Assembly (NCBI GenBank): GCA_965249625.1
Contig: OZ252246.1
Coordinates: forward strand, 1,854,365 to 1,918,364
Source of the DNA: Nitrospinales bacterium
GTDB lineage: Bacteria > Nitrospinota > Nitrospinia > Nitrospinales > VA-1
Direction: 5' to 3'
DNA length: 64,000 nucleotides
The notes beneath the pieces were generated by a model. That model saw only the letters and a program-made list of their open reading frames with translations, was not told the origin of the DNA and searched no databases. A program made the position numbers and the translations under genes. Every line of letters starts with the position of its first letter. Positions within the stretch are counted from its first letter, which is position 1. Below, in pieces: positions 2,573 through 37,149 of the stretch.

Positions 2573-3646
2573 GCAACTGTGTTAAATGTCAAGTGCTGGC
2601 AATGAGATTTTCATTCCAGAGTGTTTTTGTTTTGATCATAGTATTGATGATCGTTAATAATTTTCTCATGCATGCAGTAATGGCGACTTTAAAGGGTTTT
2701 CCCTTTTCGATGAGGCGTGTGTAAAAGGTACGAATCAGAGGATTATGTTGCATAGCAGTGACGGCGGTCATGTATAAAGCGGCACGCACATTGGCGCGTC
2801 CGCCCCGGATACACCGGCGGCCCCGGAACTTTCTGCTGTCACGATTGAGTGGAGCAAGACCGATCAGTGCGGCAACTTGCCGCCGGTTTAAGGTTCCTAA
2901 CTCTGGAACACCGGCTAACAGGCGACAATACGGGCCCTGCGCCTGGCAAGCTTTGAATGATCAGGTCGCGCTCATGCCAGACAGAACTGTTCCGGATAGC
3001 TATGGAAAGGTCACCATCGATTTTACGCAAGCGTTTTTTTAAGAGATTCGGTATGCTCCTTAATGTCCTTACGTATCCATTTTGGAGCTTGTTTTAAACG
3101 GGTCTTTTCCCTGGTTAGCATCTCGATCAACTGGCGTCTGCGAGTGACCAGAGCTGAGAGCTTCAGGGATTCTGCATCTTTGATTTTTCTGGCCTCAGGG
3201 CGTATGGCCTTGGCAAAATGGGCCAGCACAAGAGAATCAATGACATCCGTTTTTGCCAGTTTTCCGATGGCTTTGGCAAAATCACGAACTTGCCGTGGGT
3301 TGACCATGGCTACTGGCAGTCGACCCGCAGCCAAGGCCGAGGCCAGCGGGAGCTCCAAACCGCCTGTGGCTTCCAGAACAATTAATGGAGGGTTTAAGGC
3401 GGATAAACTCTCGACCAAACCAGCAATCCCTTCCTCATTGTCAGCGGTTTGCCAGGTTTCTTGAGTCATGCTGTCAGCGGCATCCAGATGGTGTTTGGAA
3501 ATATCGATGCCAATAAAATGCGCTTTCTGATTCATAATTTGGTCTCCCAGCCTTGTCGATGCGGGCTCAGTGGCCCAGGCAACTGTTCGGGTTAATCAAA
3601 ACAGGACACAACGACCTGCGCTCCAGGACGGGTTTAATAACCCAAG
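2573..3646 (-). mobile_element. IS110-family insertion sequence (decayed), inserted in an M1 hairpin
   Basis: It contains the IS110-type transposase reading frames. The boundaries are inferred from the flanks. Joining left flank ...catgccccgaag to right flank ggggtaaacgatc recreates an intact M1 hairpin (compare catgcccctaaaggggtaaaacgctc at 28481..). The triplet aag occurs at both junctions (2570..2572 and 3644..3646). Confidence 0.7.
2589..3535 (-). pseudogene. IS110-family (DEDD/RuvC-like) transposase, at least two frameshifts
   Basis: Three minus-strand ORF pieces make up the gene. Piece 3023..3535 is the N-terminal domain (FIGIDISKHHLD, VLEATGGLE, KTDVID). Piece 2839..3030 reads IRNSSVWHERDLIIQSLPGAGPV. 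Piece 2589..2789 is the C-terminal domain (RAALYMTAVTAMQHNPLIRTFYTRLIEKGKPFKVAITACMRKLL). My own translation of a third frame across about 2790..2925 gives VPELGTLNRRQVAALIGLAPLNRDSRKFRGRRCIRGG and bridges the pieces. One frame change sits at an A7/T7 run near 3033..3039. Confidence 0.8.
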
Positions 3647-8864: not shown

Positions 8865-10052
8865 GGGCCTGTTGCCCAAACCTTTTGATGGGAGCGTGGG
8901 TTTATAAGGATTATAATTTATCCAGCTAGTTTTTGTTGTTCTACAGTTTTAATCTTTTTTTCCGGGAGTCCTTCCCATGATGAAACGCGAAACCCCGTGG
9001 CAGAGCGTATTCTTTAACTATGCCGTGAATCTTGAAGATCGGATACCTCGAGATCACGAGTTGCGGCAAGTTTCTTCCGTTTTGAACCTGGATTTTATGT
9101 ATGAACAAGTAAAGGATAAGTACGGCCACAATGGAAACGAATCGGTTCCGCCTCCGGTGATTCTAAAACTGATGTTGCTGCTCATCTTTTACAACGTTCG
9201 TTCCGAACGTGAGTTGATGCGTACGCTTCCGTACCGGATGGATTGGCTCTGGTTTCTGGGTTATGGTCTGGACACTGTGATTCCTAATCACAGCGTATTA
9301 TCGAAGGCGCGTTTCAGATGAGGTGAATCAGTTTTTAAAGAGTTGTTCGAGCGAATCGTACACCAATGTGTAGAGTTGGGTTTGGTGGATGGGAAGAAAT
9401 TGTTCATGGACTCAAGCCTTGTCGATGCGAACGCTTCCCGGGAATCGGTGGTCGACATGCATTCACTCAGCGCATTTACATTCGACCCTGAAAGCGATAC
9501 CTATATCTGCCCGGCGGGCAAACGCTTGCGGCTGAAGACCCGCCGGTTAAAAGAGCAGCGTATGTATTACGCCGCCAGAGCAGACGACTGTAATGCCTGC
9601 GAACTAAAATCCCAATGCACACGTAGTGCAACCGGACGCACGATCCAACGGTATGATCGTCAGGACGACCTCGAAGAAATGCGCGCAATGGCAAAGACCC
9701 CAAAAGGAAAACAAGACCTGAAAACGAGACAGCATCTTATGGAACGGTCATTCGCATATTCAGTGCCCTTGGGATTCAAAAGGGCGCGGTGGCGAAGATT
9801 ATGGCGGGTCCAGATTCAAGAATACCTGACTGCATCCATTCAAAACATCAAACGAATGATCCAACACCTGAAAAAATCGATTCACAGTAATGCATTGAAG
9901 GTCGTACAACGATTCAAAAACTGCTTGCAGGCTTCAACTTGGGGAGGAATGAATCTGAGTTTTGGGATTTCAATTTAGAAAAGAAAATTCGTAGGAAATA
10001 CACAAAATCAATATCAGCAACCCTTCACGGCAACCCTTTGGGCAACAGGCCC
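8865..10052 (+). mobile_element. IS5/IS1182-like insertion sequence with 16-bp terminal inverted repeats
   Basis: Left end gggcctgttgcccaaa (8865..8880) is the exact reverse complement of right end tttgggcaacaggccc (10037..10052). T-runs flank both ends (tctttt / ttttct). The element encloses the DUF772-type transposase frames. Confidence 0.75.
8977..9978 (+). pseudogene. IS5/IS1182-type transposase interrupted by in-frame TGA, probably also internally shortened
   Basis: ORFs 8977..9321 (InsH/DUF772-like N-terminus: IPRDHELRQV...PPPVILKLMLLLIFYNVRSERELM) and 9343..9978 (LFMDSSLVDANAS, DTYICPAGKRL, CNACELKSQC, HLMERSFAY...GFKRARWRRLWRVQIQEYLTASIQNIKRMI) are in the same frame. They are separated by TGA at 9319..9321, at a position where relatives as I recall them have Trp (ARFR-W-GE). 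The total of about 330 codons is short for this family. Confidence 0.7.
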
Positions 10053-12293: not shown

Positions 12294-12751
12294 GAAAATC
12301 CTTCAGCCCCACCAGTGGGGTTTTACTCCCCATGACTCGGCTATGTCTTTTAAAATAACTCTTTATCAGGATACTCCATCCGCTTGCGGCGGGATTGTCG
12401 CTCTGAAGCCCCAATCAATTTTTTAAAGCAATTCGGAAACGATTGCAAGTCAATTGGTGATATGATGGTACCGATGCAATACGGAGACGCCTCGTTGGAC
12501 AATCATTTCTTCGAAAAAAACCTCCAATCAGGGAAAAAACAACTGTCGGTAAAAAGCACTCAGGAGAATCCCCTGCTCACCGACCAAGTCATGTATAGTT
12601 ATTTACGAACACTGGAATACATCATCCAGGCCAATTCAGCTACCCGTGTTTTTAACTTTTATTCACACGGTGCTGAAATTAAACAGGCATCGGTTTCAGG
12701 TTCGGCGAACAAATTAAAGTGCCGGGCTTTTTCCCCAGTGACCTGAGAGCC

Positions 12752-14704: not shown

Positions 14705-15172
14705 TCAATGATCTTCCAACTGATACTCGTCCTTGCCTTTCCATCCAGCGGAGCGGAACGTGCTTTCAAAATCCACCTTGCCCCGGATCACCGCTTGCAG
14801 AGTGGCTCTTGAGCAATCAGGAACGATCCTTGTGTATACGTTTCCATTACGTTTAAGCAACCCGAAGACGATGGTTTTGCCACTGGCTCCGCGACCTCTT
14901 TTTCCTTGAACCCGCCGGGCCCCGAAAAAGCTTTCATCGACTTCGATATCTCCAGAAAATGGAGATTCTATTTCACATTCTTCAGCAATTCTTTCGCGGA
15001 CAAGAAGCTGATATTTATTAACCGGGTTGCGATTTAAACCTGTCAATTTGGCAATCCTGGTCGCTTCAATATCCAGTGAAAAATACTTTAAAATTTCCCT
15101 GAATTTCCTCCTCGAAATCCGGGCACGTTTCAAAGCCGCGTAACTCTTTGTCATAACTGAAGTTTGAACCAC
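14705..15172 (-). pseudogene. IS1595-family (ISXO2-like) transposase, N-terminal fragment
   Basis: The HTH-like region (RRKFREILKYFSLDIEATRIAKLTGLNRNPVNKY) is followed by the start of the DDE domain (IEVDESFFGARRVQGKRGRGASGKTIVFGLLKRNGNVYTRIV). The frame ends after about 155 codons, and the rest of the catalytic domain is missing. Confidence 0.65.
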
Positions 15173-15183
15173 TTTTAATGGCT

Positions 15184-15363
15184 TTAACGAGTCATGAACC
15201 TAAGTTTTTTGCTTTCCCAGTCCGACGAGGACTGGGTCTCCTTATCACTAAAGTCGATCAAATTCTGCTCACCGTTCTTCCAAAATCGGTTGCTCAGCCT
15301 TTTGGGGGATAAAACTTTTTTCAGTTCTCCTTTGGTGTCGAAAATCCTGACTTCATAGAACAT
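15184..15363 (-). CDS. hypothetical small protein (59 aa)
   Basis: My own translation gives MFYEVRIFDTKGELKKVLSPKRLSNRFWKNGEQNLIDFSDKETQSSSDWESKKLRFMTR. It falls below the ORF-track length cutoff. I recognise no homology. Confidence 0.25.
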   Translation of the reverse strand: MFYEVRIFDTKGELKKVLSPKRLSNRFWKNGEQNLIDFSDKETQSSSDWESKKLRFMTR

Positions 15364-15794: not shown

Positions 15795-16388
15795 TCAGCC
15801 TTTATTCTCATAATAATCCAGGCCAGAGTGGTCGATCACTTTTTCTCCCATAATGATCCGCAAGGTATTGCGAAGTTTATCATCCTGATCGAACAGGGAG
15901 TTCACCGGTTTGAGGTAGGGTCTGCATTGGGGCGATTTAAAATAAAACGAAAGCCATTCCTGTATGCCTCTCATTCCCGCCCGTTGCGCCAGGTCGAGGA
16001 ATAACACCAGGTCCAGAACGACAGGTGCCGCAAGAATAGAATCGCGACAAGGAAAATTGATTTTTAATTGCATTTTTTGACCCAACCAACCTTGGATATC
16101 TATATCATCCCAGCCTTCTTTAGCATCTCCTCTTGGAGGATAATATTCGATGCGGATTTTATGGTAGTAGTCTCCATAGAGATCGGGATAAAGATCATCC
16201 TGAAGGATGCGCGACATTTGCGTGACCGACCCAATAGGTTTGCTATGTCCAGAATTCACCAGAAAGACCCCAGCGATAAGTGTCGAACGCACCGCTCCCA
16301 TTCCTGGCAACAAAACTCCCAATTTCCCTTTTGGCGGCGCAATTTTTTTCGCCATGCCGCTATATTTGTCGCTGGTCTCAGTCATCAA
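15795..16388 (-). pseudogene. myo-inositol-1-phosphate synthase remnant (intact frame, central part apparently deleted)
   Basis: The N-terminal Rossmann start GKLGVLLPGMGAVRSTLIAGV...KPIGSVTQM joins directly to the C-terminal MIPS region YHKIRIEYYPPRGD...CRDSILAAPVVLDLVLFLDLAQRAGMRGIQEWLSFYFKSP. The ORF is 197 aa, against roughly 360-400 aa for archaeal/bacterial MIPS as I recall them. The junction is near 16195..16210. Confidence 0.6.
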
Positions 16389-16663
16389 GTCCTACTCCTC
16401 TCAAGTTAGATCATGACTCTAGTGGTTGTAAATTGGTTCAACTGGAAGGCCCTGGCACAAGAAGGAGGTACAACCTTGCGAGTGGCAAACCTGTTGATTC
16501 TGTGCAAGAATGGCACCCTGCAGCCTGTATTGGATAGTTTTTTTCCAATCTAGAGATCTGCAACAAACTGACTTAAAAACCGACCCTCATAAACAAATGG
16601 CCTCTATCGGGTGAGGCTAGCTTTTGTTTAATATTACAATACGTTTCACAGGCTAACAGCCGC

Positions 16664-17878
16664 ATGAACCCCAACACCAACCCTCCAAATTCCGAAGCTT
16701 CACTGCAAAGTACATGTGGCATCCTTTACTTACCGCCTCCTCCGGAACCTTGGGAAACTGCGGAGTGGTATGCATCATCCATTGCCGGCGTACCTTTCCT
16801 TTTAAGAAACATTCTGACTCTTCAGCGTTCTGGACTGCATGACATAACCATCCTCATGGATGCCGGGGAAACAGAAAAATTAACCCTCGCCATTGAGAAA
16901 GATTCTCGCATCACCGCAAAGGTTCATTGGATGACAAAACCCGACCAGCTAAAAGAAACGCTGCAAAACCACCGGGTTCTTTTTTTTAACGGATCTGCTC
17001 TTCACGACAAAAAAGAGGTTCGTTCCCTTCTAGAAACTGAAGGAACAAAAACTCCTGAAACTTTACCCATCAGCAACGAGCAGCTCGAATCATTGATAGA
17101 AAAAATCCAAACGAATGGCGAAAAAGAATCAGGAGAACTCCTAGAAAACACACGCTCCTTTACATATGTACCTGGGATGGAAAAAACCCATGTTCGGGAA
17201 CAAAAAGATTTTAATACTCTAAACAAACGCTTACTTAAAGGTTCCGGCCAAAACCATGACAGCACCATAACCCGACTTCTATCCCGTCCAGTTTCCAGAA
17301 AACTGACCCGCTTTTTTTTGAATACGCCGATTCACCCCAACCAGATCACGCTGTTTGGTTTTGCCATGGGCTTGGGGTCGGCTCTGTGTTTTGCGCAAGG
17401 AACATATCAGACAAACATATTTGGCGGCCTCTTGTTATTATTTTCAACATGGGTGGATGGAGCAGACGGAGAAATCGCCAGATTGAAATTTATGGAAACG
17501 GAATTAGGAGGCAAGCTGGACATTGTTTGCGACAACATTGTCCACTTCTTCGCATTCGGAGCTATAGGCTGGGGGTTGAGCGAGGCAACAGGCGACAAAA
17601 CCTACATATATGTAGGAGGATTGGCCGCATTCGCCAGCTTAACTTCCTTTATGCTTCTGGGCGCATCCCTTCTCAAGAAAAGCTCCAACGCCGCCACTCC
17701 GTTACCGGAATCGCAACCCTCTCTGGCCGATAAACTCGCCAACCGGGACTTCATTCATTTTCTTATGTTGATGGCTTTGATCGATTTGGTGCAAGTGTTT
17801 ATATTCATCGCCGCTGTAGGTGCCACCGTTTTCACCACCTATCTGATTTACCTACGCCTCTCTCAGCGATCTCATTAA
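16664..17878 (+). CDS. CDP-alcohol phosphatidyltransferase with N-terminal degenerate nucleotidyltransferase-like domain
   Basis: The C-terminal TM domain carries the family motif DGADGEIARLKFMETELGGKLDIVCD (D-x2-DG-x2-AR-x8-G-x3-D-x3-D). The roughly 200-aa N-terminal domain sits where IPCT sits in bifunctional IPCT/DIPPS enzymes. It lacks a G-x-G-x-R-L loop and reads ILYLPPPPEPW instead. Confidence 0.75.
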   Translation: MNPNTNPPNSEASLQSTCGILYLPPPPEPWETAEWYASSIAGVPFLLRNILTLQRSGLHDITILMDAGETEKLTLAIEKDSRITAKVHWMTKPDQLKETLQNHRVLFFNGSALHDKKEVRSLLETEGTKTPETLPISNEQLESLIEKIQTNGEKESGELLENTRSFTYVPGMEKTHVREQKDFNTLNKRLLKGSGQNHDSTITRLLSRPVSRKLTRFFLNTPIHPNQITLFGFAMGLGSALCFAQGTYQTNIFGGLLLLFSTWVDGADGEIARLKFMETELGGKLDIVCDNIVHFFAFGAIGWGLSEATGDKTYIYVGGLAAFASLTSFMLLGASLLKKSSNAATPLPESQPSLADKLANRDFIHFLMLMALIDLVQVFIFIAAVGATVFTTYLIYLRLSQRSH

Positions 17879-17882
17879 AAAA

Positions 17883-18605
17883 TTATTTTGAAGAATTGGC
17901 AATCAAATAACTTTCGGCTTGTTTGTACCTTTCAGGGTCATCAATATCGATCCAAAACATGCCATCGACCGGCATGGTGCGTACCCGACCTTCCCGGGCC
18001 ATGATACGAACCCCTCCGGACAGTGAGTCATCCCCAGAGTCCCGCAAAGATTGCTCCAAGGCCGAAAACAAGGCCGGATTGCAAAGAAAGATTCCCGTAT
18101 CAAAACAGTTATATGCCTCAATTCCTTTACCTATATTTTGAATCAGGCCCTTCTCTGCCATCACCCGAGTCACATCATCCAGATCAACCATGGGGTTTTT
18201 CAGATCCTGATCCACCGCCAAAACGATTTCATCATCAGCCAAGGGATAGTCGATCATTTTGCGAGCAATACCAGGATCAAAAAGATGGTCTCCCATTAAC
18301 AGGAAAAAAGGCTCCTTTAAAAATTTCTTTGCTTTAAGCACCGACAAGCCGTTGGCCTTTTCCCAATCGTCATTTTCAATCACCGTGACAGGCACATCAA
18401 TTTTGCCAGCTAAATCTTCAAGAAAAGCGCGAACCTGATCCCCTCGATACCCCACCACCGCATAAAATCCATCCACTCCCGCCTCTAAAGCAGAACAAAT
18501 GACCCGTTCAACAAGAGGAACATCCAAAAGGGAAGCCAGCGGCTTACTGTCGGACAGAGATTTTAAGCGACTTCCTTTTCCAGCGATAATGATTAAGCAT
18601 TTCAT
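17883..18605 (-). CDS. nucleotidyltransferase, CTP:inositol-1-phosphate cytidylyltransferase-like
   Basis: MKCLIIIAGKGSRL, then NGLSVLKAK...FFLLMGDHLFD, CFDTGIFLC and FWIDIDDPE. In my recollection of the A. fulgidus enzyme, these align closely with the IPCT half of archaeal IPCT/DIPPS. Confidence 0.75.
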   Translation of the reverse strand: MKCLIIIAGKGSRLKSLSDSKPLASLLDVPLVERVICSALEAGVDGFYAVVGYRGDQVRAFLEDLAGKIDVPVTVIENDDWEKANGLSVLKAKKFLKEPFFLLMGDHLFDPGIARKMIDYPLADDEIVLAVDQDLKNPMVDLDDVTRVMAEKGLIQNIGKGIEAYNCFDTGIFLCNPALFSALEQSLRDSGDDSLSGGVRIMAREGRVRTMPVDGMFWIDIDDPERYKQAESYLIANSSK

Positions 18606-18657
18606 AATGTTAATGACTCATTTCAGCGAAAAAATTTCTGTCAAAACTAAAAGCATC

Positions 18658-19665
18658 CTAATTCGAATCTTCCTGAGCGACTTTAGCCAGATCAAAAGGC
18701 TTTTGTGAATATTCCAGGCCTACGGAAAATCCCCAAACCAACCAGACAATTTCCCGAACCCGCCTGATGAGAGCCGCAGCAACGCCCAATGCAGGTTGAC
18801 CCGCTATCGCTTCCGTTGCGATCATAAAAATAGCTTCCGTACTGCCCAGCCCGGAAGGAATAAAAAATGTGCCTGCCCGAACCAGTTCAATGAGTGTTTC
18901 CAGAATTATGGCCTCAACAATTGTAATAGGATGGCCTAAAAAATAAAAAATGACGAATATTTCCAAGGCACCCAAATACCAGTTAACAAGATTCAAAAAT
19001 AGCGCGGAGATGAAGCGTCCCTTGTCACAGGTATAAAATTGCACCAGCCGCTCATCCATATCATGGATTTGGTGGAGAAATTTTTCCAGCCGTTGGCCAA
19101 ACTTTCTCTGGCTAAGCCAAGTACCGGTTAATGAAGTGATCTTGTAGCGCTGAATGGCGTAGAACAAAAATATTCCAAGAGTGATTGCACTCAAGCTAAG
19201 AATCGCGAAGAGACGAAAGCTCTCAGGAAGGTCTGAACCCATGATTATAAGGAAAACACCCGTTGCCGCAAATAAAACCAGGGAGATCATATGGGTGGAT
19301 TCGGCAAGGATCATTGATGCCGTCCCTTCCCGGTAGCGGATTCCATAATGATGCTTGAGAATATAACCTTTAATAGGCACTCCTCCCCAAGAGCTGAAAG
19401 GCATCACTTTAGAAAAAGCCGAACCCACCATGCGGACCTTCCAAAGGTCATACAACCATCGTTTGGTGAATTGTGTGCCGGGCAAAGTAAACTGCCATGC
19501 AAAGGTGTCCACCATAAAGGCTATTTTATAAACGACCAACACAACTACAATGCCCCAGCCCATTTTTTTTAACTGGGACCAAACCGAAGCAAGGTCTGTA
19601 TAGCTCAGAACAAAAAAAAGCAGGCCAATACCTATCAACAAATACAAAATTTTTAAAGGTTTCAT
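18658..19665 (-). CDS. flippase-like polytopic membrane protein (lysyl-PG synthase TM-region / UPF0104-like)
   Basis: I moved the start to ATG 19665 (MKPLKILYLLIGIGLLFF), 5 nt after the upstream stop, to remove the 127-nt overlap in the track. It has multiple hydrophobic spans. The family call is from general resemblance only. Confidence 0.6.
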   Translation of the reverse strand: MKPLKILYLLIGIGLLFFVLSYTDLASVWSQLKKMGWGIVVVLVVYKIAFMVDTFAWQFTLPGTQFTKRWLYDLWKVRMVGSAFSKVMPFSSWGGVPIKGYILKHHYGIRYREGTASMILAESTHMISLVLFAATGVFLIIMGSDLPESFRLFAILSLSAITLGIFLFYAIQRYKITSLTGTWLSQRKFGQRLEKFLHQIHDMDERLVQFYTCDKGRFISALFLNLVNWYLGALEIFVIFYFLGHPITIVEAIILETLIELVRAGTFFIPSGLGSTEAIFMIATEAIAGQPALGVAAALIRRVREIVWLVWGFSVGLEYSQKPFDLAKVAQEDSN

Positions 19666-19670
19666 AGCTG

Positions 19671-20300
19671 TCACACATGCCAGCGACGCGCACTGCAGGT
19701 GAACTGCAGGCACCAATAGGCCTGGGCACCAATCGCGGTCGGAGGGAGAATGTACCAAAGTACGCCCCCCATACTCATAAATAATACGATGAAACAAAAA
19801 TCGCTGCGGACAACACGTGCGTTGAGCACAAATCGATCCATCCTGGTGTCGTCATCCCTCGTCATCGCATCTTCGGGAGGACGTTGGCTGGAATGAAGCT
19901 TGGTCTTATTTTGATAAAGCTCCAGGCCGTAATTAATGGTGCCGCCTAACCCCGCAGCGATACCAGTCCACAACCACCATTTCTGCCCTGTCACTGAGGT
20001 TGCCCCCCACCCCAGGCAAACAAAGAAAAAACCATGGACAACCCAATCGACGAAGGTGTCGAATCTCATTCCAAAAATACTGCGCATATCCTTGAGGCGG
20101 GCAATCTCACCATCGCAGTTGTCGAGCACATAGCAACCAAACAACAAAAATGCGCCAATAAGTGTCGAGGTATAGGTTCCATTTAGACAGGTCACTCCAG
20201 CGGCCAAGCCAAACAGTAAAGACAAGGAGGTGATCTGGTTCGGCGTGATCGGTGTGCGTACCAATAGCAGGGTAAGCCGAAAGGAAAAATGCCGGATCAA
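19671..20300 (-). CDS. CDP-alcohol phosphatidyltransferase family protein
   Basis: The motif DNCDGEIARLKDMRSIFGMRFDTFVD is present. The 209-aa protein is polytopic. Confidence 0.85.
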   Translation of the reverse strand: MIRHFSFRLTLLLVRTPITPNQITSLSLLFGLAAGVTCLNGTYTSTLIGAFLLFGCYVLDNCDGEIARLKDMRSIFGMRFDTFVDWVVHGFFFVCLGWGATSVTGQKWWLWTGIAAGLGGTINYGLELYQNKTKLHSSQRPPEDAMTRDDDTRMDRFVLNARVVRSDFCFIVLFMSMGGVLWYILPPTAIGAQAYWCLQFTCSARRWHV

Positions 20301-21795: not shown

Positions 21796-22242
21796 ATGAA
21801 AAAAAACTGACCGCCTTGATCGAGGAGAAAGGCGATCTCCCGCCTCTTCCCGATATCCTCCTGAACCTGGAAAATAAAATCATCCGACCTCACCTTGGCG
21901 GAAAATGAAGCAGGAACTTTCGGCATCACACATGCTGAACTGGGGGCACGGTTCATCGAAAAATGGTGGCCGGTTTCACCGGGCCTGATGGAAGCCATTC
22001 GCGTCCACCATGATTCACCACGAGATGATGGCAACGTGAAGCATATTGCCCACCTTCTCGCCACCGCCAACCTTCTGGCAAACCAGAACGAATTCAGCAA
22101 TGGTATTGTCCCGGAAGACACGGTGCCTCTCGAATACGGTGTCCTGGACAAACTGGATCTGGATTCCGAAGAACTGGAAATCCTGATTGAGAACACTAAA
22201 GAAGGTCTGGAGGCCGCGCAATCTATCCTTAAAAGCAACTGA
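21796..22242 (+). pseudogene. HDOD-domain protein remnant (homopolymer frameshift plus internal deletion)
   Basis: The C-terminal half is in ORF 21895..22242 (GITHAELGARFIEKWWPVSPGLMEAIRVHHD). My own translation of another frame at 21789..21893 gives QIYEKKLTALIEEKGDLPPLPDILLNLENKIIRP, an HDOD N-terminus. The ATG at 21796 is out of frame with it by one A in an A8 run. The roughly 130 central residues expected between the two parts are absent. Confidence 0.6.
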
Positions 22243-28928: not shown

Positions 28929-29845
28929 AATCTATTCCTTTCCAAAATGAGGACCAACTATTGAATTCGACCAGTATATACGCCCACTAGGCGTGGAGCC
29001 AATGAGTAATTACCTTCTCCCAAGGGCAAAAAGTATGGGTGACTTGACGGGTTCCTGCCAATTGCCCCTGCGGCGAACAGGGGAAACATAAATGTTTAAA
29101 GGTCTTTCCCTAATTATCCGAAAATAATAATAGGCAAGTCTGCTAATAATGAGGGCACTTATCGTTTCACGTTGTTTTCAGCCTGATCCGAACTTAGATT
29201 TATTACAGTGAGTATGAGGCCAGTCTCGATGCGTCAAAATTTTGTAATAACTTGACAAACATCAATAAATTCATTAAGTAGGGAGAGAAATTATGAGGGA
29301 AATGTGTGCCTGTGAATAAAATTTTCCCGGCGGTCAATGCGGTCAATCTGGCTTTTGTCCCCACCATCGCTCTCCTTGTTACCTTGTCGGTCAAAACCTG
29401 GACCCACCCCCTTATCCATCCATGGTGGGTGGTTCCTCGCTGGTGGGATTGATGCGTACAGACACCACCGACACCACTGCAAGCATTCCTATGCTGAAAG
29501 ATCTCCCCCACAAGTAGGAAAGCTGTTTGATTCCGAAACCACCACCCCTAAAAAACGGAACTGATGATATTTATCACCCCTCACGTTATCTCGAACTCTG
29601 ATGATTCTGAGTTTGTCACCCGCGAATTCAAAAAACGTCTGCCCAACCTGAAAAACCTCGACCCCAGAAGAAGCTAGCCTCCAACCCAGGCAAAAACCCC
29701 ATAAAGTGCTTGAAATCAGGGCCAATCTCAAGCATAGTGGGTGTTCTTTTATTCTATAATTCCCTTTCGTGCACATTTGTTTCCTGGCATACACAGGGGC
29801 CATTCCAAAGGAAGCGGATTAGAGTGCCAGATTCCCAGGGTTGAA

Positions 29846-30772
29846 ATGATTAAATCCAAATTTGTGAATAGTTTAGAGTTGATCGGTGACACCCCTTTGG
29901 TTAGACTGAACAGCGTTATCCCTTCAAATGGTGCCAATATTTTCGCTAAGCTGGAATTCTTCAATCCAGGGGGCAGTGTCAAGGATCGTATCGCACTGGC
30001 TATGGTGAAAGATGCAGAAAAAAAGGGCCTGCTGAAACCCGGTTCCACGATCATTGAACCCACAAGTGGAAATACAGGGATCGGCCTCGCTCTGGTGGGT
30101 GCCATCAAGGGCTACAATGTCATACTGGTCATGTCTGAGAACATGAGCTCCGAACGAAGGATGATTCTGGAAAGTTTTGGCGCAAAAACTGAATTGAGCC
30201 GCGCCGAATTCGGGATGGAAGGCACCATCCAAAGGGCAGAAGAAATGCTGGCTGAAAATCCGGGTTATTTCATGCCCCAGCAGTTCAACAACCCCGCCAA
30301 CCCGGAAGTGCATCGGCAAACAACCGGGCCCGAAATCGTTGCCGCCATGAATGGTGAATCGGTTGACGGTTTTGTGGCCGGCATTGGAACCGGGGGAACT
30401 ATCACCGGAGTTGGGGAAGTCTTAAAACAGCATTATGAGCAGGTTAAAGTGGTGGGTGTCGAGCCGGCAACCTCGGCGGTGTTATCAGGAGAACCACCCG
30501 GTCCCCACAAAATCCAGGGAATTGGCGCAGGGTTTAAACCCAATGTCCTGAACTTTGATCTGCTGGATCGTATTTTACCCGTTTCCGATGAAGACGCCTT
30601 TCTGTTTGCCAAGAGGCTCGGGAAAGAAGAAGGTCTTCTCGCTGGCATTTCTTCCGGAGCCGCATGTTTTGCCGCCAATGAAGTGGCCAAAGAGTTAGGC
30701 CCCGACAAAAATGTGGTGGTGGTTTTACCAGATACGGGCGAACGCTATTTCAGTTTTAATCAATACTTCTAA
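29846..30772 (+). CDS. cysK: cysteine synthase A (O-acetylserine sulfhydrylase)
   Basis: I moved the start to ATG 29846 (MIKSKFVNSLELIGDTPLVRLN). The PLP-lysine motif is NPGGSVKDRIAL, followed by TSGNTGIGLA and GIGTGGTITG. Confidence 0.9.
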   Translation: MIKSKFVNSLELIGDTPLVRLNSVIPSNGANIFAKLEFFNPGGSVKDRIALAMVKDAEKKGLLKPGSTIIEPTSGNTGIGLALVGAIKGYNVILVMSENMSSERRMILESFGAKTELSRAEFGMEGTIQRAEEMLAENPGYFMPQQFNNPANPEVHRQTTGPEIVAAMNGESVDGFVAGIGTGGTITGVGEVLKQHYEQVKVVGVEPATSAVLSGEPPGPHKIQGIGAGFKPNVLNFDLLDRILPVSDEDAFLFAKRLGKEEGLLAGISSGAACFAANEVAKELGPDKNVVVVLPDTGERYFSFNQYF

Positions 30773-30821
30773 AATAGACAGGATTTTGTTTTCCTGTAAA
30801 AAAAACCAAGGGAATGTTGGA

Positions 30822-32060
30822 ATGGGTTATGTTAAAGGATTAATCTGTAAAGAATGCAAAAAAGAATACCCCAAGGACCCGATTCACGTTTGTGAATTTT
30901 GTTTTGGGCCCTTGGAAATCAATTACGATTACGAATCCATCAAAAAGGTCGTGACCAAAAAGTCTATTGAGTCCGGCCCGCCCTCCATGTGGCGCTATGA
31001 GGCCCTTTTGCCTCTGGATGAGCCCCCAAAAGTAGGTCATCACACCGGTTTCACCCCTTTAATCAGGGCAAAAAACCTGGGCAAGGCACTGGGACTGAAA
31101 CATCTTTACCTGAAAAACGACTCCGTCAATCATCCCACTTTTTCTTTCAAGGACCGGGTCGTTTCAGTGGCCGTTTCCAAGGCCATAGAGTTTGGGTTCG
31201 ACACCATCTCCTGCGCCTCAACGGGTAACCTGGCAAACTCGGTGGCCGCCCATGCGGCAGAGGCCGGCCTGAAAAGTTGCATCTTCATTCCTGATGGATT
31301 GGAAGCGGGAAAAATTCTCGGGACTTTGATTTACGGAACGCAGCTGATTGCCGTCAAAGGCAGTTATGATGACGTGAACCGGCTTTGCAGTGAAATTGGA
31401 GCCAACCATGACTGGGCCTTCGTGAATATTAACATCCGGCCTTATTATGGCGACGGGTCTAAATCTTACGGTTATGAAATTGCCGAGCAGCTGGGCTGGA
31501 AAACACCGGACAATGTTGTGGTTCCCGTGGCAGGCAGTTCGCTGATCACAAAAATATGGAAAGCTTTTCATGAGTTTGAAATGCTGGGGCTGGTCGATAA
31601 GGTACAAACCAAAATTTTTGCGGCCCAGGCCACTGGCTGTTCCCCCGTCACCACAGCCATAAAAAATGGCACTGAAAACATCATACCGGTCAAGCCGAAT
31701 ACCATTGCCAAGTCCATCGCCATTGGAAATCCGGCCGATGGATACTACGGGATCAAAACCGCAAACACCAGCGGTGGCTACGGAGAAGACATCTCTGACG
31801 AAGAGGTGGTCACTGCTATGAGACTGCTGGGCGAGACCGAAGGCATATTCACGGAAACTGCAGGAGGCGTTACTGTAGGCGTCACACAAAAACTGGTCCA
31901 GCAAGGCCGGATCAAACCGGATGAAGTGACGGTCATTTGTATTACCGGCAACGGATTAAAAACCCAGGAAGCCTTGGCAGGTTGTTTTCCAGTGCCTACG
32001 GTGATCGAACCTAAAATAGATAGTTTTGAAGAAATTTTTGCCAACGGTTTAACAGTTTAA
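30822..32060 (+). CDS. threonine synthase family PLP enzyme with N-terminal zinc ribbon (ThrC or ThrC-like)
   Basis: I moved the start to ATG 30822 (MGYVKGLICKECKKEYPKDPIHVCEFCFGPLE). The PLP-lysine motif is HPTFSFKDRVVS, followed by CASTGNLANSVAAHAA. Whether it makes threonine or acts with the adjacent sulfur carrier cannot be decided from sequence. Confidence 0.85.
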   Translation: MGYVKGLICKECKKEYPKDPIHVCEFCFGPLEINYDYESIKKVVTKKSIESGPPSMWRYEALLPLDEPPKVGHHTGFTPLIRAKNLGKALGLKHLYLKNDSVNHPTFSFKDRVVSVAVSKAIEFGFDTISCASTGNLANSVAAHAAEAGLKSCIFIPDGLEAGKILGTLIYGTQLIAVKGSYDDVNRLCSEIGANHDWAFVNINIRPYYGDGSKSYGYEIAEQLGWKTPDNVVVPVAGSSLITKIWKAFHEFEMLGLVDKVQTKIFAAQATGCSPVTTAIKNGTENIIPVKPNTIAKSIAIGNPADGYYGIKTANTSGGYGEDISDEEVVTAMRLLGETEGIFTETAGGVTVGVTQKLVQQGRIKPDEVTVICITGNGLKTQEALAGCFPVPTVIEPKIDSFEEIFANGLTV

Positions 32061-32072
32061 AAGGAGTAAAGC

Positions 32073-32354
32073 ATGGCAGTAAAAGTAAGAGTACCCACCC
32101 CGTTAATGAAGTTGACCAACAACAAGAGCGAGGTGACGGCAGAAGGTGCCACCATCAGCGAAATTCTCAACAATCTGGAGAGCCAGTTTGCTGGAATTAA
32201 AGAGCGCATCTGCGAAGAAAGCGGTGCTCCCCGGCGTTTCATTAATATCTATTTGAACGAAGAAGATATCCGGTTTCTTGAGGGCGAAAGCACCGCTGTT
32301 AAAGATGGCGATGAAATCTCCATCATACCGGCAATAGCGGGCGGCACTAAATGA
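32073..32354 (+). CDS. MoaD/ThiS-family sulfur-carrier protein, C-terminus ...AIAGG-TK
   Basis: It is a 93-aa beta-grasp-like protein ending DGDEISIIPAIAGGTK. AAGGAG lies upstream of the ATG. Its stop overlaps the next gene's start (ATGA at 32351..32354). Confidence 0.8.
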   Translation: MAVKVRVPTPLMKLTNNKSEVTAEGATISEILNNLESQFAGIKERICEESGAPRRFINIYLNEEDIRFLEGESTAVKDGDEISIIPAIAGGTK

Positions 32355-33157
32355 TCGATTTTACCGATGAGCAGATAGAGCGCTACAGCCGCCACATCAT
32401 CCTCCCTGAAGTGGGAGGTGAGGGACAAAGCCTCCTTTTAGAATCAAAAGTTCTTTTGGTGGGTGCAGGTGGGCTGGGCTCTCCTGCCGCGTTTTATCTT
32501 GCCGCCGCTGGTATCGGCAACATGGGAATCATCGACTTTGATACCGTCGACCTCAGTAATCTGCAGAGGCAGATCATCCATAATACCGAGCGTATCGGCA
32601 TGCTCAAAACCGAGTCCGCAAAAAAAACCATTTCAGCACTCAATCCTGATGTCAATGTCACAGTTTTTAATGAGAGACTGAATTCGGAAAACATCATGCG
32701 CCTGTTTGAAGGCTATGATTATATTCTTGATGGCACCGACAATTTTGCCACGCGTTATCTCATCAATGATGCCTGTGTGATGACGGGAAAAGCCAATATC
32801 CATGGCAGTATATTCCGTTTTGAAGGACAGGTAACCGTTTTCAAGCCTGACGAAGGCCCCTGCTACCGTTGCCTCTATCCGGAACCGCCCCCACCGGGTC
32901 TGGTTCCCAATTGTCAGGAAGGCGGTGTTTTGGGTGTGCTGGCAGGAGTGATCGGAAACCTGCAAGTGGTCGAGACCCTGAAACTAATTCTAGGGAAAGG
33001 AGAAACCCTGGTCGGTTCTCTGCTTATTTATGACGCACTGAAAACAGAATTCAGGAAACTGAAATTAAAGAAAGATCCGAAGTGCCCTATTTGTAGCGAC
33101 CAACCCGCGATCACCGAATTGATTGACTATGAAGAATTTTGTGGTTTGCCGCGCTGA
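32351..33157 (+). CDS. ThiF/MoeB/HesA-family E1-like adenylyltransferase (no rhodanese domain)
   Basis: RYSRHIILPEVG, the nucleotide loop VGAGGLGSPAAFYLAAAGIG, DLSNLQRQ, and the zinc pairs CYRC and CPIC. At 268 aa it has no C-terminal extension. Confidence 0.85.
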   Translation: MIDFTDEQIERYSRHIILPEVGGEGQSLLLESKVLLVGAGGLGSPAAFYLAAAGIGNMGIIDFDTVDLSNLQRQIIHNTERIGMLKTESAKKTISALNPDVNVTVFNERLNSENIMRLFEGYDYILDGTDNFATRYLINDACVMTGKANIHGSIFRFEGQVTVFKPDEGPCYRCLYPEPPPPGLVPNCQEGGVLGVLAGVIGNLQVVETLKLILGKGETLVGSLLIYDALKTEFRKLKLKKDPKCPICSDQPAITELIDYEEFCGLPR

Positions 33158-33238
33158 TAAAGAAATATAAAAAATACCGGTAATTTTTTGCATCGTACCC
33201 GGTTTAAAAGATATCTAATATCTGAAATATCAAAATCG

Positions 33239-34240
33239 ATGAAATTCCCCATTCCCTTTGAGGTTCAGGCACCAACTTGCCCTGTCATCACCAACCAATC
33301 GGTGTTGAAGGCGATCGGCAACACCCCTCTGATCCGCATTCATAACTTGGGAAAAGAGTTCAAGGATGTGGATATTTACGCCAAGGCCGAGTGGAAAAAC
33401 GCCGGCGGTTCAGTAAAATCCCGCCCTGCCCTGAGAATGATCGAAGATGGTGAAAAATCCGGCAAGCTCACCAAAGATAAAATCATCCTCGATTCCACAT
33501 CCGGCAACACCGGCATCTCCTATGCACTGATCGGCAAGGTAAAAGGCTATAAAGTCAAACTGGTCATGCCAGCGAATGTCTGCAAAGAACGCAAAGGACT
33601 CATGGCCGACTTTTACGGCGCTGAAATTGTGACCTCCAGCCCCTTTGAAGGCTCCGATGGTGCGATCATCATGGCCAAGAAAATCTATGACGAAAATCCG
33701 GATATTTACTTCATGCCGGACCAGTACAACAACGACTCCAACTGGAAAGCGCATCAGGAAACCACAACACAGGAAATTTGGAATCAGACCAATCACCGAG
33801 TCACCCATTTCCTGGCGGGTATCGGAACCGGGGGTACCATTATGGGAACCAGCCGCGGCCTGCGCCAACTGAACTCTGACATCAAATGCTACGCAGTGGA
33901 ACCGGCAGAGTCCCTGCACGGACTGGAAGGCCTCAAACATATGGAGACTTCCATCGTACCCGGAATTTATAAAGAAGAAGAACTGGATGGGAAACTCAGC
34001 ATCCCGACCGACGAAGCTTACGACATGGTTGAGGTGCTGGAAAAACAGGAAGGCATCCTGGTCGGGCATTCTTCTGCCGCCGCTATGGTGGGAGCCCTGA
34101 AACTCGCCTCACAGATTAAAAGAGGGGTGATTGTTACCGTGTTCCCCGACAGTTGTGAAAGATGTTACGTTAACTTTGGGCAATTCAAGCAGTATTACGA
34201 GACCCACTCCAGCACCAGGCGTGAGGCCAACGAGCAATAG
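33239..34240 (+). CDS. cysteine synthase B-like PLP enzyme (CysM-like)
   Basis: I moved the start to ATG 33239. Motifs are IGNTPLIRI, the PLP lysine in NAGGSVKSRPAL, TSGNTGISYA and GIGTGGTIMG. Confidence 0.85.
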   Translation: MKFPIPFEVQAPTCPVITNQSVLKAIGNTPLIRIHNLGKEFKDVDIYAKAEWKNAGGSVKSRPALRMIEDGEKSGKLTKDKIILDSTSGNTGISYALIGKVKGYKVKLVMPANVCKERKGLMADFYGAEIVTSSPFEGSDGAIIMAKKIYDENPDIYFMPDQYNNDSNWKAHQETTTQEIWNQTNHRVTHFLAGIGTGGTIMGTSRGLRQLNSDIKCYAVEPAESLHGLEGLKHMETSIVPGIYKEEELDGKLSIPTDEAYDMVEVLEKQEGILVGHSSAAAMVGALKLASQIKRGVIVTVFPDSCERCYVNFGQFKQYYETHSSTRREANEQ

Positions 34241-35709: not shown

Positions 35710-37149
35710 TCATAAACTCTCCAAATCTTCCTCTATCGCATCGCCAGCTTCCAGTAAATTATCAGTGATGTCTTCTAATTGAGGAATTGAATGACCTACA
35801 ATTCCTTCAAATGAGCCATACATTGATAAAATATTCTCTTCAACTTGTTTAATTTGCTCCTCCCGCTTAGCCCAACGGTTTTTAGTGGTTCTAATTTCTT
35901 TTTGAAGCTCCTCATTCATTCGGCTAAAACTGTCTAGACAATCAGAAATCCTGTTTTTGAACCCTGGAGAAGTTAAGTAACCATAAAGCTTTTCCATTTT
36001 TAGATTTTTACCCTCTAAGGTCTGATCTTTTTGATGCAATTCAATAATTGCATTTCTGAGAATTTTGGCTAGTGGAACAACTAAATCCATATTAGTTACC
36101 CAAACATTCCTGATATCACCAAAATTTGAGATTTCTTTAGGAAGAGTTTTAGATACCAATATAGAAAAGTTCGCATTAACTACCTTCTGATCAGCCTTTA
36201 ATTTATCAATCCAAGGATCTTGCCACAATTTAGTATTTTTGGATTCCCACAAAATAATGCCACAGGTCCTACCTTGAAGACGTATTGTTTGAACAATATC
36301 AGCACCATTGACACCAACAGGAACATCTTCGATGATATCCTCGTAAAAGTTTTCTTTTAAAGTAGCTTTTAATTGTTCTTCAGTTACTTCTCCTTGTATT
36401 TGCTGTGATCCTTGTTCCACCGTTTGCTTTAAATTATTGATTTCTTTTCTAAGAAGCTCAATGGTTTTTTCTTTTTCCCCAAGTTTTTGCCTGGATTCAC
36501 TTTGAGTTTGATCTTGGGTTTCTTTTATTAGTTTTTCTTTGTTGAAAAGAAAATCCTTTTCCATCTCCCTTTTTTTGTCTTCTAATTGATCCTTTTGTTT
36601 AATGAATTCCAATTCTAAGTCTTTACGCTCATTTTTTGCTTTTCTTAATTCTTCGTTTAGGTTTTTAATGTTGATTTCAACCTCAGCAATTTCCTTTTCT
36701 TTTTCAAAATCATATTTCTTTTTTAATTTACCTTTAGCTTCTATCACCTTTTTCTCCAATTCTCTATCAAAATCTTCTTTGGTTTCTTGCAATTTGCGTT
36801 CAGTTTTTCGGGCCTTTAGTTCGGCATCTTTTAGTTTTTCATTTACAGCCTGTTGTTCTTTTAGCTTTTCGTTTAAATCATTTAACTCTAATGAAAATTT
36901 GCTTTCCGCCTCATTGGTAAGCTCTATTTTTAAGTTATTTCTTTCTTTTAATAATTTTTCACTAATGGTTTTCTCAATTGACCCCTCTTTCTTTAATAAT
37001 GCTTTTTCTTTTTCAATTAACTCCTTTTCTTTTTCCTTGGCCTCTGATTCTATTTCAGTCCTCAACTCCTGGGCTATTTGACTAGTAAGGACATCAGTTA
37101 AGGGGATTTCTGATTTACAATTAGGGCACGTAAGCAGTTGTTCAGCCAT
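35710..37149 (-). CDS. DUF2130-family protein: zinc ribbon, long coiled coil, C-terminal PD-(D/E)xK-like domain
   Basis: The N-terminus has CPNCKSEIPL. About 230 aa of K/E-rich heptad-like sequence follows. The C-terminus reads GADIVQTIRLQGRTCGIILWESKNTKLWQDPWIDKLKADQ (a D...ExK arrangement). The gene is markedly AT-rich: I counted 17 G+C in the 60 nt of line 36601. Confidence 0.8.
   Translation of the reverse strand: MAEQLLTCPNCKSEIPLTDVLTSQIAQELRTEIESEAKEKEKELIEKEKALLKKEGSIEKTISEKLLKERNNLKIELTNEAESKFSLELNDLNEKLKEQQAVNEKLKDAELKARKTERKLQETKEDFDRELEKKVIEAKGKLKKKYDFEKEKEIAEVEINIKNLNEELRKAKNERKDLELEFIKQKDQLEDKKREMEKDFLFNKEKLIKETQDQTQSESRQKLGEKEKTIELLRKEINNLKQTVEQGSQQIQGEVTEEQLKATLKENFYEDIIEDVPVGVNGADIVQTIRLQGRTCGIILWESKNTKLWQDPWIDKLKADQKVVNANFSILVSKTLPKEISNFGDIRNVWVTNMDLVVPLAKILRNAIIELHQKDQTLEGKNLKMEKLYGYLTSPGFKNRISDCLDSFSRMNEELQKEIRTTKNRWAKREEQIKQVEENILSMYGSFEGIVGHSIPQLEDITDNLLEAGDAIEEDLESL

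Follow-up and report, generated by a model that had tools for sequence, protein, structure and literature searches.

The window analysed here is a 64,000-nt stretch of contig OZ252246.1 from a Nitrospinales bacterium. At 15795-20300 it holds a cluster of five genes encoding a gutted L-myo-inositol-1-phosphate synthase (MIPS), two CDP-alcohol phosphotransferases (one of 404 aa and a smaller one), a stand-alone enzyme resembling IPCT (the cytidylyltransferase that acts on L-myo-inositol-1-phosphate), and a polytopic membrane protein of the PF03706 family. A first-pass annotation, made from the sequence alone, had read this cluster as a pathway through CDP-inositol. MIPS (minus strand) and the 404-aa transferase gene (plus strand) diverge from each other, and the latter converges on the minus-strand genes for IPCT, the PF03706 protein, and the small transferase, in this order. 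The features are as follows.

15795-16388, minus strand: MIPS remnant, a pseudogene (Pfam, profile ends only; tblastn and DNA alignment against orthologues of 448-450 aa)
16205-16210, minus strand: deletion junction with the sole GCATCC copy left, GGATGC on the plus strand (alignment with relatives)
16389-16663, no strand: divergent intergenic region of 275 bp between MIPS and the 404-aa transferase gene (gene coordinates)
16664-17878, plus strand: 404-aa AF2299/DIPPS-type CDP-alcohol phosphotransferase (PF01066, NF041135, PDB search, AlphaFold model and Foldseek)
17883-18605, minus strand: stand-alone IPCT-like enzyme, 240 aa (Pfam, NCBIfam, PDB search)
18658-19665, minus strand: PF03706 polytopic protein, 335 aa, LPG_synthase_TM, flippase-like and HpnL-like (PF03706, TIGR00374, TIGR03476)
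19671-20300, minus strand: small AF2299-type CDP-alcohol phosphotransferase, about 196-209 aa, without an N-terminal domain (PF01066, NCBIfam, PDB search)

The divergent arrangement of MIPS and the 404-aa gene is kept in relatives, and the region between them presumably holds a shared promoter, as a prediction. The genes for IPCT, the PF03706 protein, and the small transferase are likely co-transcribed, because they lie on the same strand with gaps of only 5 nt and 52 nt. An Rfam scan of the whole window found no RNA family, and Pfam scans of 40 of the larger open reading frames (ORFs) in the window found no inositol monophosphatase, inositol kinase, or inositol transporter.

The 240-aa protein belongs to Pfam NTP_transf_3 (PF12804/PF00483). 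Its best NCBIfam match was the IPCT half (1-223) of NF041135, the bifunctional IPCT/DIPPS fusion (DIPPS being the synthase of di-myo-inositol-phosphate phosphate), with an E-value of 5.9e-36 and 124 bits; the runner-up was the archaeal GlmU family with 75 bits. Among solved structures, Archaeoglobus fulgidus IPCT (2xme, E 2.2e-22) and IPCT/DIPPS (4mnd, E 3.5e-22) ranked at the top, followed by 4jd0 (E 2.8e-17), which is deposited as 'Nucleotidyl transferase' and which we take to be the IPCT of Thermotoga maritima. The E-value of the non-IPCT structure class was 1e11-fold weaker. The Gly-rich loop GKGSRL is intact and, together with LMGDH and DIDD, aligns to 2xme, as does the motif set from which the first-pass annotation had recognized the IPCT half by eye. 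Judged by sequence, the protein groups with the characterised IPCTs. An identity as a choline, glycerol, or sugar-phosphate enzyme, which that annotation had named as the competing outcome, was rejected on the NCBIfam and PDB rankings.

Both transferases match PF01066 (CDP-OH_P_transf) in Pfam, and the complete D-x2-D-G-x2-A-R-x8-G-x3-D-x3-D motif, earlier noted in both genes, could be read in both translations. In the 404-aa protein it is DGADGEIARLKFMETELGGKLDIVCD at D265-D290 (nt 17456-17533), and in the small transferase it is DNCDGEIARLKDMRSIFGMRFDTFVD. On the DIPPS half of NF041135, the 404-aa transferase scored 80.5 bits against a cut-off of 580, and in the PDB sequence search AF2299 (E 7.5e-22) came ahead of IPCT/DIPPS (4e-14). 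The small transferase scored 45 bits against a cut-off of 180 for archaetidylinositol-phosphate synthase and 31 against 170 for phosphatidylinositol-phosphate (PIP) synthase; its best PDB match was also AF2299 (E 5e-12), and no PIP synthase appeared at E<0.01 in that search. The NCBIfam ranking was the same for both proteins, that is, DIPPS, then archaetidylinositol-phosphate synthase, then PIP synthase, all far under their curated cut-offs, and these closest named families all take inositol-1-phosphate as acceptor. The profile and structure comparison that had been suggested for these enzymes thus places both in the AF2299/DIPPS/inositol-phosphate-acceptor branch. Automated JGI annotation labels homologues of the 404-aa protein 'IPCT/DIPPS'.

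An AlphaFold model of the 404-aa protein (pLDDT 76.5) was matched over its full length by Foldseek to IPCT-DIPPS (4mnd) and AF2299 (4o6m/n). In the model, residues ~200-404 form a juxtamembrane helix and six transmembrane helices, with no extra C-terminal helices. The full-length match points to a cytosolic domain of nucleotidyltransferase fold in the N-terminal ~200 residues, a region in which neither Pfam nor NCBIfam gave a nucleotidyltransferase match. The position of the G-x-G-x-R loop is occupied by LPPPPEPWE and that of the metal-binding MGD by NGS, in accordance with the earlier remark that this region sits where a nucleotidyltransferase domain would but lacks the Gly-rich loop. By its sequence, then, the domain appears to be a degenerate, catalytically dead IPCT-like domain. 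Both domains of the protein carry invariant residues in the family alignment, and the N-terminal domain, with residues invariant across 69 homologues, is conserved rather than decaying.

Structural work on CDP-alcohol transferases has indicated that the six-helix enzymes use soluble acceptors, that AF2299 and DIPPS 'do not process lipids', and that the known lipid-acceptor enzymes have three to four additional C-terminal helices (PMC4634129). By this rule, the six-helix architecture without extra C-terminal helices, together with the affinity to AF2299 and DIPPS, favours a soluble acceptor for the 404-aa enzyme and hence, as a prediction, a phosphodiester of the di-myo-inositol phosphate (DIP) type. 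An R-x-D-F / N-R-D-F motif is conserved before the last helices of both transferases, without a structure-based register to R153/R191 of RsPIPS, the conserved arginine pair that binds the phosphate of inositol phosphate (PMC4634129).

The 335-aa membrane protein of the cluster scored 103 bits on PF03706 (cut-off 33.4) and 61 bits on TIGR00374 (cut-off 43.2), so that the polytopic UPF0104/flippase-like gene reported between IPCT and the second transferase is assigned above both cut-offs. On the HpnL model TIGR03476 it reached 158 bits, under the cut-off of 195.65. Its closest homologues outside Nitrospinota, with 45-51% identity, are from Alphaproteobacteria. There the gene order is an HpnN RND transporter (991 bits on TIGR03480), a small CDP-alcohol transferase 44-46% identical to that of the window, the HpnL-like PF03706 protein, two MlaC-like genes, and a MlaA-like gene (locus L079, 3630-9238; locus L080, 3630-9295; and a JGI 3300072015 contig). 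The MlaC/MlaA-like genes of such loci are candidates for HpnM/HpnS according to a recent preprint, and HpnL is without known function in the hopanoid literature, that preprint included. We found no mention of the CDP-alcohol transferase of hopanoid-transport loci in the hopanoid literature examined. Two more small CDP-alcohol transferases lie a few kb upstream in L079 and in the JGI contig; L079 further encodes a ROK kinase and an NTP transferase.

The fifth gene, MIPS, is broken in this genome. The remnant ORF has 197 aa (196 aa from the likely ATG at 16385) and matched only the terminal parts of the two MIPS domain profiles in Pfam. It keeps, in one frame, residues 1-60 and about 315-450 of the 450-aa orthologue, in line with the ~60 N-terminal and 135 C-terminal residues counted in the first-pass annotation. 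DNA alignment with relatives located the loss to an in-frame segment of 762 bp (254 codons) between two copies of GCATCC, which covers the greater part of the NAD-binding domain and positions 1-65 of 107 of the catalytic Pfam domain. Relatives at 94, 89, 81, and 77% identity have a MIPS of 448-450 aa in the same position, and the exact 196-aa product has a single record among ~15 billion proteins, from a contig of 2.86 Mb that carries the gene for the window's 404-aa protein as well. The short MIPS is therefore a private deletion derivative and a pseudogene. The full-length relatives and the single occurrence also dispose of the other possibility that had been raised for it, namely a distinct conserved family of short MIPS proteins. 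The loss is recent, because the ratio of nonsynonymous to synonymous substitution rates (dN/dS) of the remnant is only slightly raised. A tblastn search found no second MIPS within the window.

Homologues of the 404-aa protein are nearly all from Nitrospinota/Nitrospinales, and cluster conservation was assessed at 72 loci from representative genomes. At every locus with enough flanking sequence, the genes for MIPS, the 404-aa transferase, and IPCT are adjacent. The linkage of this core trio holds even where the transferase has dropped to 43% identity, with MIPS still at 80-94%; most clusters, though not all, also have the PF03706 gene and the small transferase. The flanking RNase D and TsaB genes are common to close relatives only, so the five genes are linked beyond general synteny. 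The neighbourhood in relatives, which the first-pass annotation had left to be checked, thus proved to be a recurring five-gene cluster with a full-length MIPS. The cluster is an ancient, conserved feature of Nitrospinota, a point that annotation had missed.

A second locus, in which two AF2299-like genes of ~380-410 aa stand in tandem without MIPS or IPCT nearby, is present in many Nitrospinota (L047, 5714-8104; L049, 5755-8119; also L026, L040, L042, L044, L045, and L052). In L047 and L049, whose N-termini we read, these paralogues have a degenerate nucleotidyltransferase-like domain too, and the neighbours gave no functional clue. The AF2299-like family amounts to three or four copies per genome.

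The relatives of the 404-aa protein that were found outside the phylum are for the most part IPCT/DIPPS-type fusions from mesophilic bacteria, and DIP-type genes seem to be widespread in mesophiles. In a marine Bacteroidetes metagenome-assembled genome (MAG), MIPS is followed by an IPCT/DIPPS-type fusion gene of 451 aa, a protein with an HD domain, and an S6PP-like phosphatase fusion (L074, 5164-10405), and a Verrucomicrobia MAG has an IPCT/DIPPS-type fusion gene of 502 aa beside a mannosylglycerate-hydrolase-like enzyme (L060, 6227-10901). A 2.2-kb contig labelled Opitutia (L014, JABGWU010000152.1) has the Nitrospinota arrangement of MIPS, 404-aa transferase, and IPCT at 65-86% identity and is probably a mis-binned Nitrospinota contig.

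None of the closest systems compared has this gene set, in accordance with the first-pass annotation, to which no characterised system of exactly this composition was known. The DIP pathway of thermophiles (A. fulgidus AF0263, 4mnd; 2xme) shares MIPS, an IPCT-like cytidylyltransferase, and a six-helix transferase with a cytosolic domain of nucleotidyltransferase fold. The cluster departs from it in its host, a marine nitrite oxidiser that is mesophilic or psychrophilic, in encoding IPCT separately from a transferase whose own IPCT-like domain is dead, in having a PF03706 membrane protein and a second transferase besides, and in a family score of 80.5 against 580 bits. AF2299 of A. fulgidus (4o6m/4o6n/4q7c) is the best PDB sequence match of both transferases, shares the DGEIARLKFME signature with them, and like the 404-aa protein has a cytidylyltransferase-like N-terminal domain fused to six transmembrane helices, whereas it is archaeal and the small transferase lacks this domain. 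AF2299 was crystallised with CDP-glycerol, and its physiological reaction is not established (PMC4634129). PIP synthase and archaetidylinositol-phosphate synthase share the CDP-alcohol motif, the six-helix size, and the inositol-1-phosphate acceptor, but both transferases scored only 31-51 bits on these families, with cut-offs of 170-180.

The 'alternative' cluster of Bacteroides vulgatus and Prevotella (Heaver et al. 2022, PMC9246714), likened here by its description, has MIPS, an NTP transferase as proposed CDP-inositol maker, and a CDP-alcohol transferase, with a lysyl-PG-synthase-like (PF03706-type) gene near. It differs in having an HAD hydrolase, in having one transferase instead of two, and in that no dead nucleotidyltransferase domain is reported; neither the window nor the relatives' loci have an HAD hydrolase in or beside the Nitrospinota cluster. 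Finally, the HpnL (TIGR03476) and HpnN/HpnM/HpnS loci of Proteobacteria resemble the accessory part of the cluster through the PF03706 protein and through its closest outside homologues, which directly follow the HpnN-transferase pair; they differ in that the HpnL score stays under the cut-off and that Pfam scans of the larger ORFs found no hopanoid genes in the window. The counterparts on record are themselves predicted, namely the Bacteroides/Prevotella cluster (PMC9246714) and, for archaea of the cold deep sea, IPCT/DIPPS (PMC8397731, PMC7265257). What appears to be new here, on the gene content, is that one cluster combines an IPCT split off as its own gene, a transferase whose IPCT-like domain is dead, an additional transferase of AF2299 type, and an HpnL-like protein.

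The locus is probably the Nitrospinota version of a CDP-inositol pathway, made up of the core trio and the accessory pair of small transferase and PF03706 protein, with MIPS lost in this genome and the product being a prediction. In relatives, MIPS would convert glucose-6-phosphate to L-myo-inositol-1-phosphate, and the stand-alone IPCT would use CTP to convert this to CDP-inositol. The 404-aa six-helix transferase would then move phospho-inositol onto an acceptor alcohol, most probably a second inositol-1-phosphate, to give a DIP-type phosphodiester, its dead IPCT-like N-terminal domain perhaps being kept as a structural or docking module. The accessory pair would make and translocate an inositol-phosphate-bearing membrane lipid; we infer this role by analogy, because the pair recurs beside HpnN, MlaC, and MlaA in Alphaproteobacteria. 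In the genome of the window, MIPS was lost recently through the 762-bp deletion between 6-bp direct repeats, within a general deletional erosion. Since MIPS is destroyed, the locus-encoded source of inositol phosphate is missing, and the pathway may here be newly non-functional or fed from another source. The earlier reading of a route through CDP-inositol agrees with the identities of IPCT and both transferases and with the tight linkage of MIPS across Nitrospinota. The final product may be a DIP-like solute, an inositol lipid, or both. A purely soluble output is doubted, because the PF03706 gene lies on the same strand with short gaps and has its homologues in lipid loci.

Several observations weigh against this proposal. 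Both transferases are nearer to AF2299, for which natural substrates are not established, than to DIPPS, and both lie far beneath every NCBIfam equivalog cut-off. A second MIPS may exist elsewhere in the 2.86-Mb genome, and IPCT and the 404-aa gene, which persist where MIPS is gone, may be independent of it. Within the accessory part, the PF03706 gene is intact where the small transferase is dead and is absent from certain clusters in which the small transferase is present (L028, L033); since each occurs without an intact other, the two are not an obligate pair.

Among the nitrite oxidisers of the ocean, Nitrospinota dominate. An inositol-phosphate cluster strongly conserved throughout this phylum would imply an unrecognised inositol solute or lipid in their cells, and we found no link between Nitrospina and inositol in the literature searched. 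The cluster would represent an unusual architecture of the DIP machinery. Pseudogenisation is ordinary; the phylum-wide cluster and the module of transferase and HpnL-like protein are the interesting parts.

One alternative is a pure compatible-solute pathway, in which the trio makes DIP, the small transferase yields a soluble phosphodiester related to it (for example, glycero-phospho-inositol), and the PF03706 protein is uninvolved or exports the solute. The core trio is the canonical DIP gene set, and the acceptor rule drawn from six-helix enzymes speaks for soluble products (PMC4634129). The fused IPCT/DIPPS genes of mesophilic marine Bacteroidetes and Verrucomicrobia, beside MIPS, S6PP-like, and mannosylglycerate-hydrolase-like genes, point in the same direction, as does the proposal that cold deep-sea archaea make an osmolyte or piezolyte through IPCT/DIPPS (PMC8397731, PMC7265257). 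However, the PF03706 gene is linked to the cluster phylum-wide, on the IPCT strand and with short gaps, and the nearest outside homologues of the PF03706 protein sit, with a small transferase of their own, in lipid/hopanoid transport loci. Moreover, Nitrospinales are reported to rely on ectoine (PMC10579370). We regard an exclusively soluble pathway as possible but doubtful.

A Kennedy-type inositol lipid pathway, in which one or both transferases place the phospho-inositol of CDP-inositol onto an alcohol of the membrane, be it diacylglycerol, ceramide, or a hopanoid polyol, and the PF03706 protein flips the product to the outer leaflet, is likewise a tentative candidate. Similar logic has been proposed for the 'alternative' cluster of Bacteroides vulgatus and Prevotella, species that have inositol sphingolipids without PIP synthase, and a PF03706-like gene adjoins both Bacteroides inositol-lipid clusters (PMC9246714). 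The transferase/PF03706 pair stands beside HpnN, MlaC, and MlaA in Alphaproteobacteria, and Nitrospinales have been reported as hopanoid producers. On the other hand, the Bacteroides pathway is itself unconfirmed, our literature search having found no confirmation after 2022; the three to four extra C-terminal helices of lipid-acceptor enzymes are missing from both transferases; and the HAD hydrolase is missing from the cluster.

A more specific and rather speculative extension is that the small transferase and the HpnL-like protein form a portable two-gene module, which would place a phospho-alcohol (here phospho-inositol from the adjacent MIPS/IPCT supply) onto a membrane polyol lipid such as bacteriohopanepolyol, the product then being moved across or out of the inner membrane. 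If this long shot were true, a function could be assigned to HpnL-type proteins, and a class of hopanoids or lipids bearing phospho-inositol would be expected both in the principal nitrite oxidisers of the sea and in Alphaproteobacteria that produce hopanoids. The link of the transferase to the HpnL-like protein in hopanoid-transport loci offers a concrete hypothesis for HpnL.

The state of the cluster in the closest relatives bears on a third alternative, the independence of the kept genes from MIPS. In the closest relative, OZ253496.1 (L007, 95%), MIPS has a different deletion of 583 bp and a 1-bp deletion, and MIPS of Nitrospina sp. LS_NOB carries a deletion of 1 bp. An intact small transferase occurs in the window genome and in OZ253496.1; the gene is multiply disrupted in OZ242182.1 and OZ253582.1 (L001, L006) and deleted in GCA_010367365 and two Logan assemblies (L003-L005). 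The genes for the 404-aa transferase, IPCT, and the PF03706 protein have no stop or frameshift in 7/7 clade genomes. Their dN/dS within the clade (0.19-0.33, 0.07-0.15, and 0.10-0.21, respectively) is like that of RNase D and TsaB, and the three genes are under purifying selection; these ratios are no clean test of selection on the kept genes after the loss of MIPS, the MIPS lesions being too recent. The five or six independent lesions of the clade fall only in MIPS and the small transferase, to which 40% of the cluster coding length belongs; the rough chance of such a placement is ~0.01 if lesions are uniform and ~0.03 if both MIPS deletions followed one ancestral hit. These close relatives, lacking either MIPS or the small transferase, constitute a natural experiment.

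The kept genes might then act on another phospho-alcohol (e.g., glycerol phosphate via CDP-glycerol) or on host-derived inositol phosphate, so that the loss of MIPS is tolerated. The restriction of the lesions to MIPS and the small transferase, the purifying selection on the kept genes, and the fact that both transferases are closest to AF2299 would suit this explanation. We nevertheless consider it unlikely: the MIPS lesions look recent, so that intact downstream genes may not yet have decayed, no other member of the cluster is as conserved across the phylum as MIPS, and IPCT groups with characterised inositol-phosphate enzymes.

Erosion is not confined to the cluster. The HDOD/HD gene at 21801-22239 has only aa 3-32 and 164-286 of 286 left, and the MptE-like gene at 12462-12737 only aa 1-25 and 413-480 of 482, both through internal deletion; the two are intact in more distant free-standing relatives and left as different end-fragments within the clade. 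The window also contains three truncated transposase ORFs, at 3023-3535 (IS110 DEDD type), 9343-9978 (DDE_Tnp_1_6), and 14705-15172 (IS1595). The last belongs to an insertion beside MIPS of 466 bp (14735-15200, minus strand; blastn gap, PF12762, NF033547), which by blastn is absent at this position from L001, L003, and L006. Among the closest relatives of the window genome is a sponge-holobiont MAG. Given the lesions across the clade, the gutted neighbours, the transposase fragments, and this sponge-associated relative, reductive evolution, probably in association with a host, is the ordinary explanation of the MIPS lesion. The MIPS deletion is one of many lineage-specific lesions, which the first-pass annotation had missed. 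That the short MIPS is an assembly artefact, as its presence in one assembly only might suggest, is very improbable, because the 6-bp microhomology at the junction is too short for an assembly collapse, the remnant has additional amino-acid changes, the closest relative has a different MIPS deletion, and neighbouring genes have like internal deletions, some common to several assemblies.

Other features of the window lie apart from the cluster. A giant minus-strand ORF (48237-63995; at least 5,252 aa), which may run past the window end, encodes fibronectin type III, cadherin-like, and bacterial Ig-like repeats; this block has ~60% GC, compared with ~47% in the remaining window, and by its sequence looks like a horizontally acquired adhesin of the host-adhesion type. 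ABC exporter genes occur as two fused genes at 37341-40903 and one at 560-2443, and nothing evident connects them with the cluster. A DUF2130 gene (479 aa, 35710-37149) lies in a local trough of 37% GC and may be foreign DNA. Three pyridoxal-phosphate-dependent (PALP) enzymes and a ThiF-family protein are clustered at 29741-34240, and one of these PALP enzymes has a short NinF-like zinc-ribbon N-terminus.

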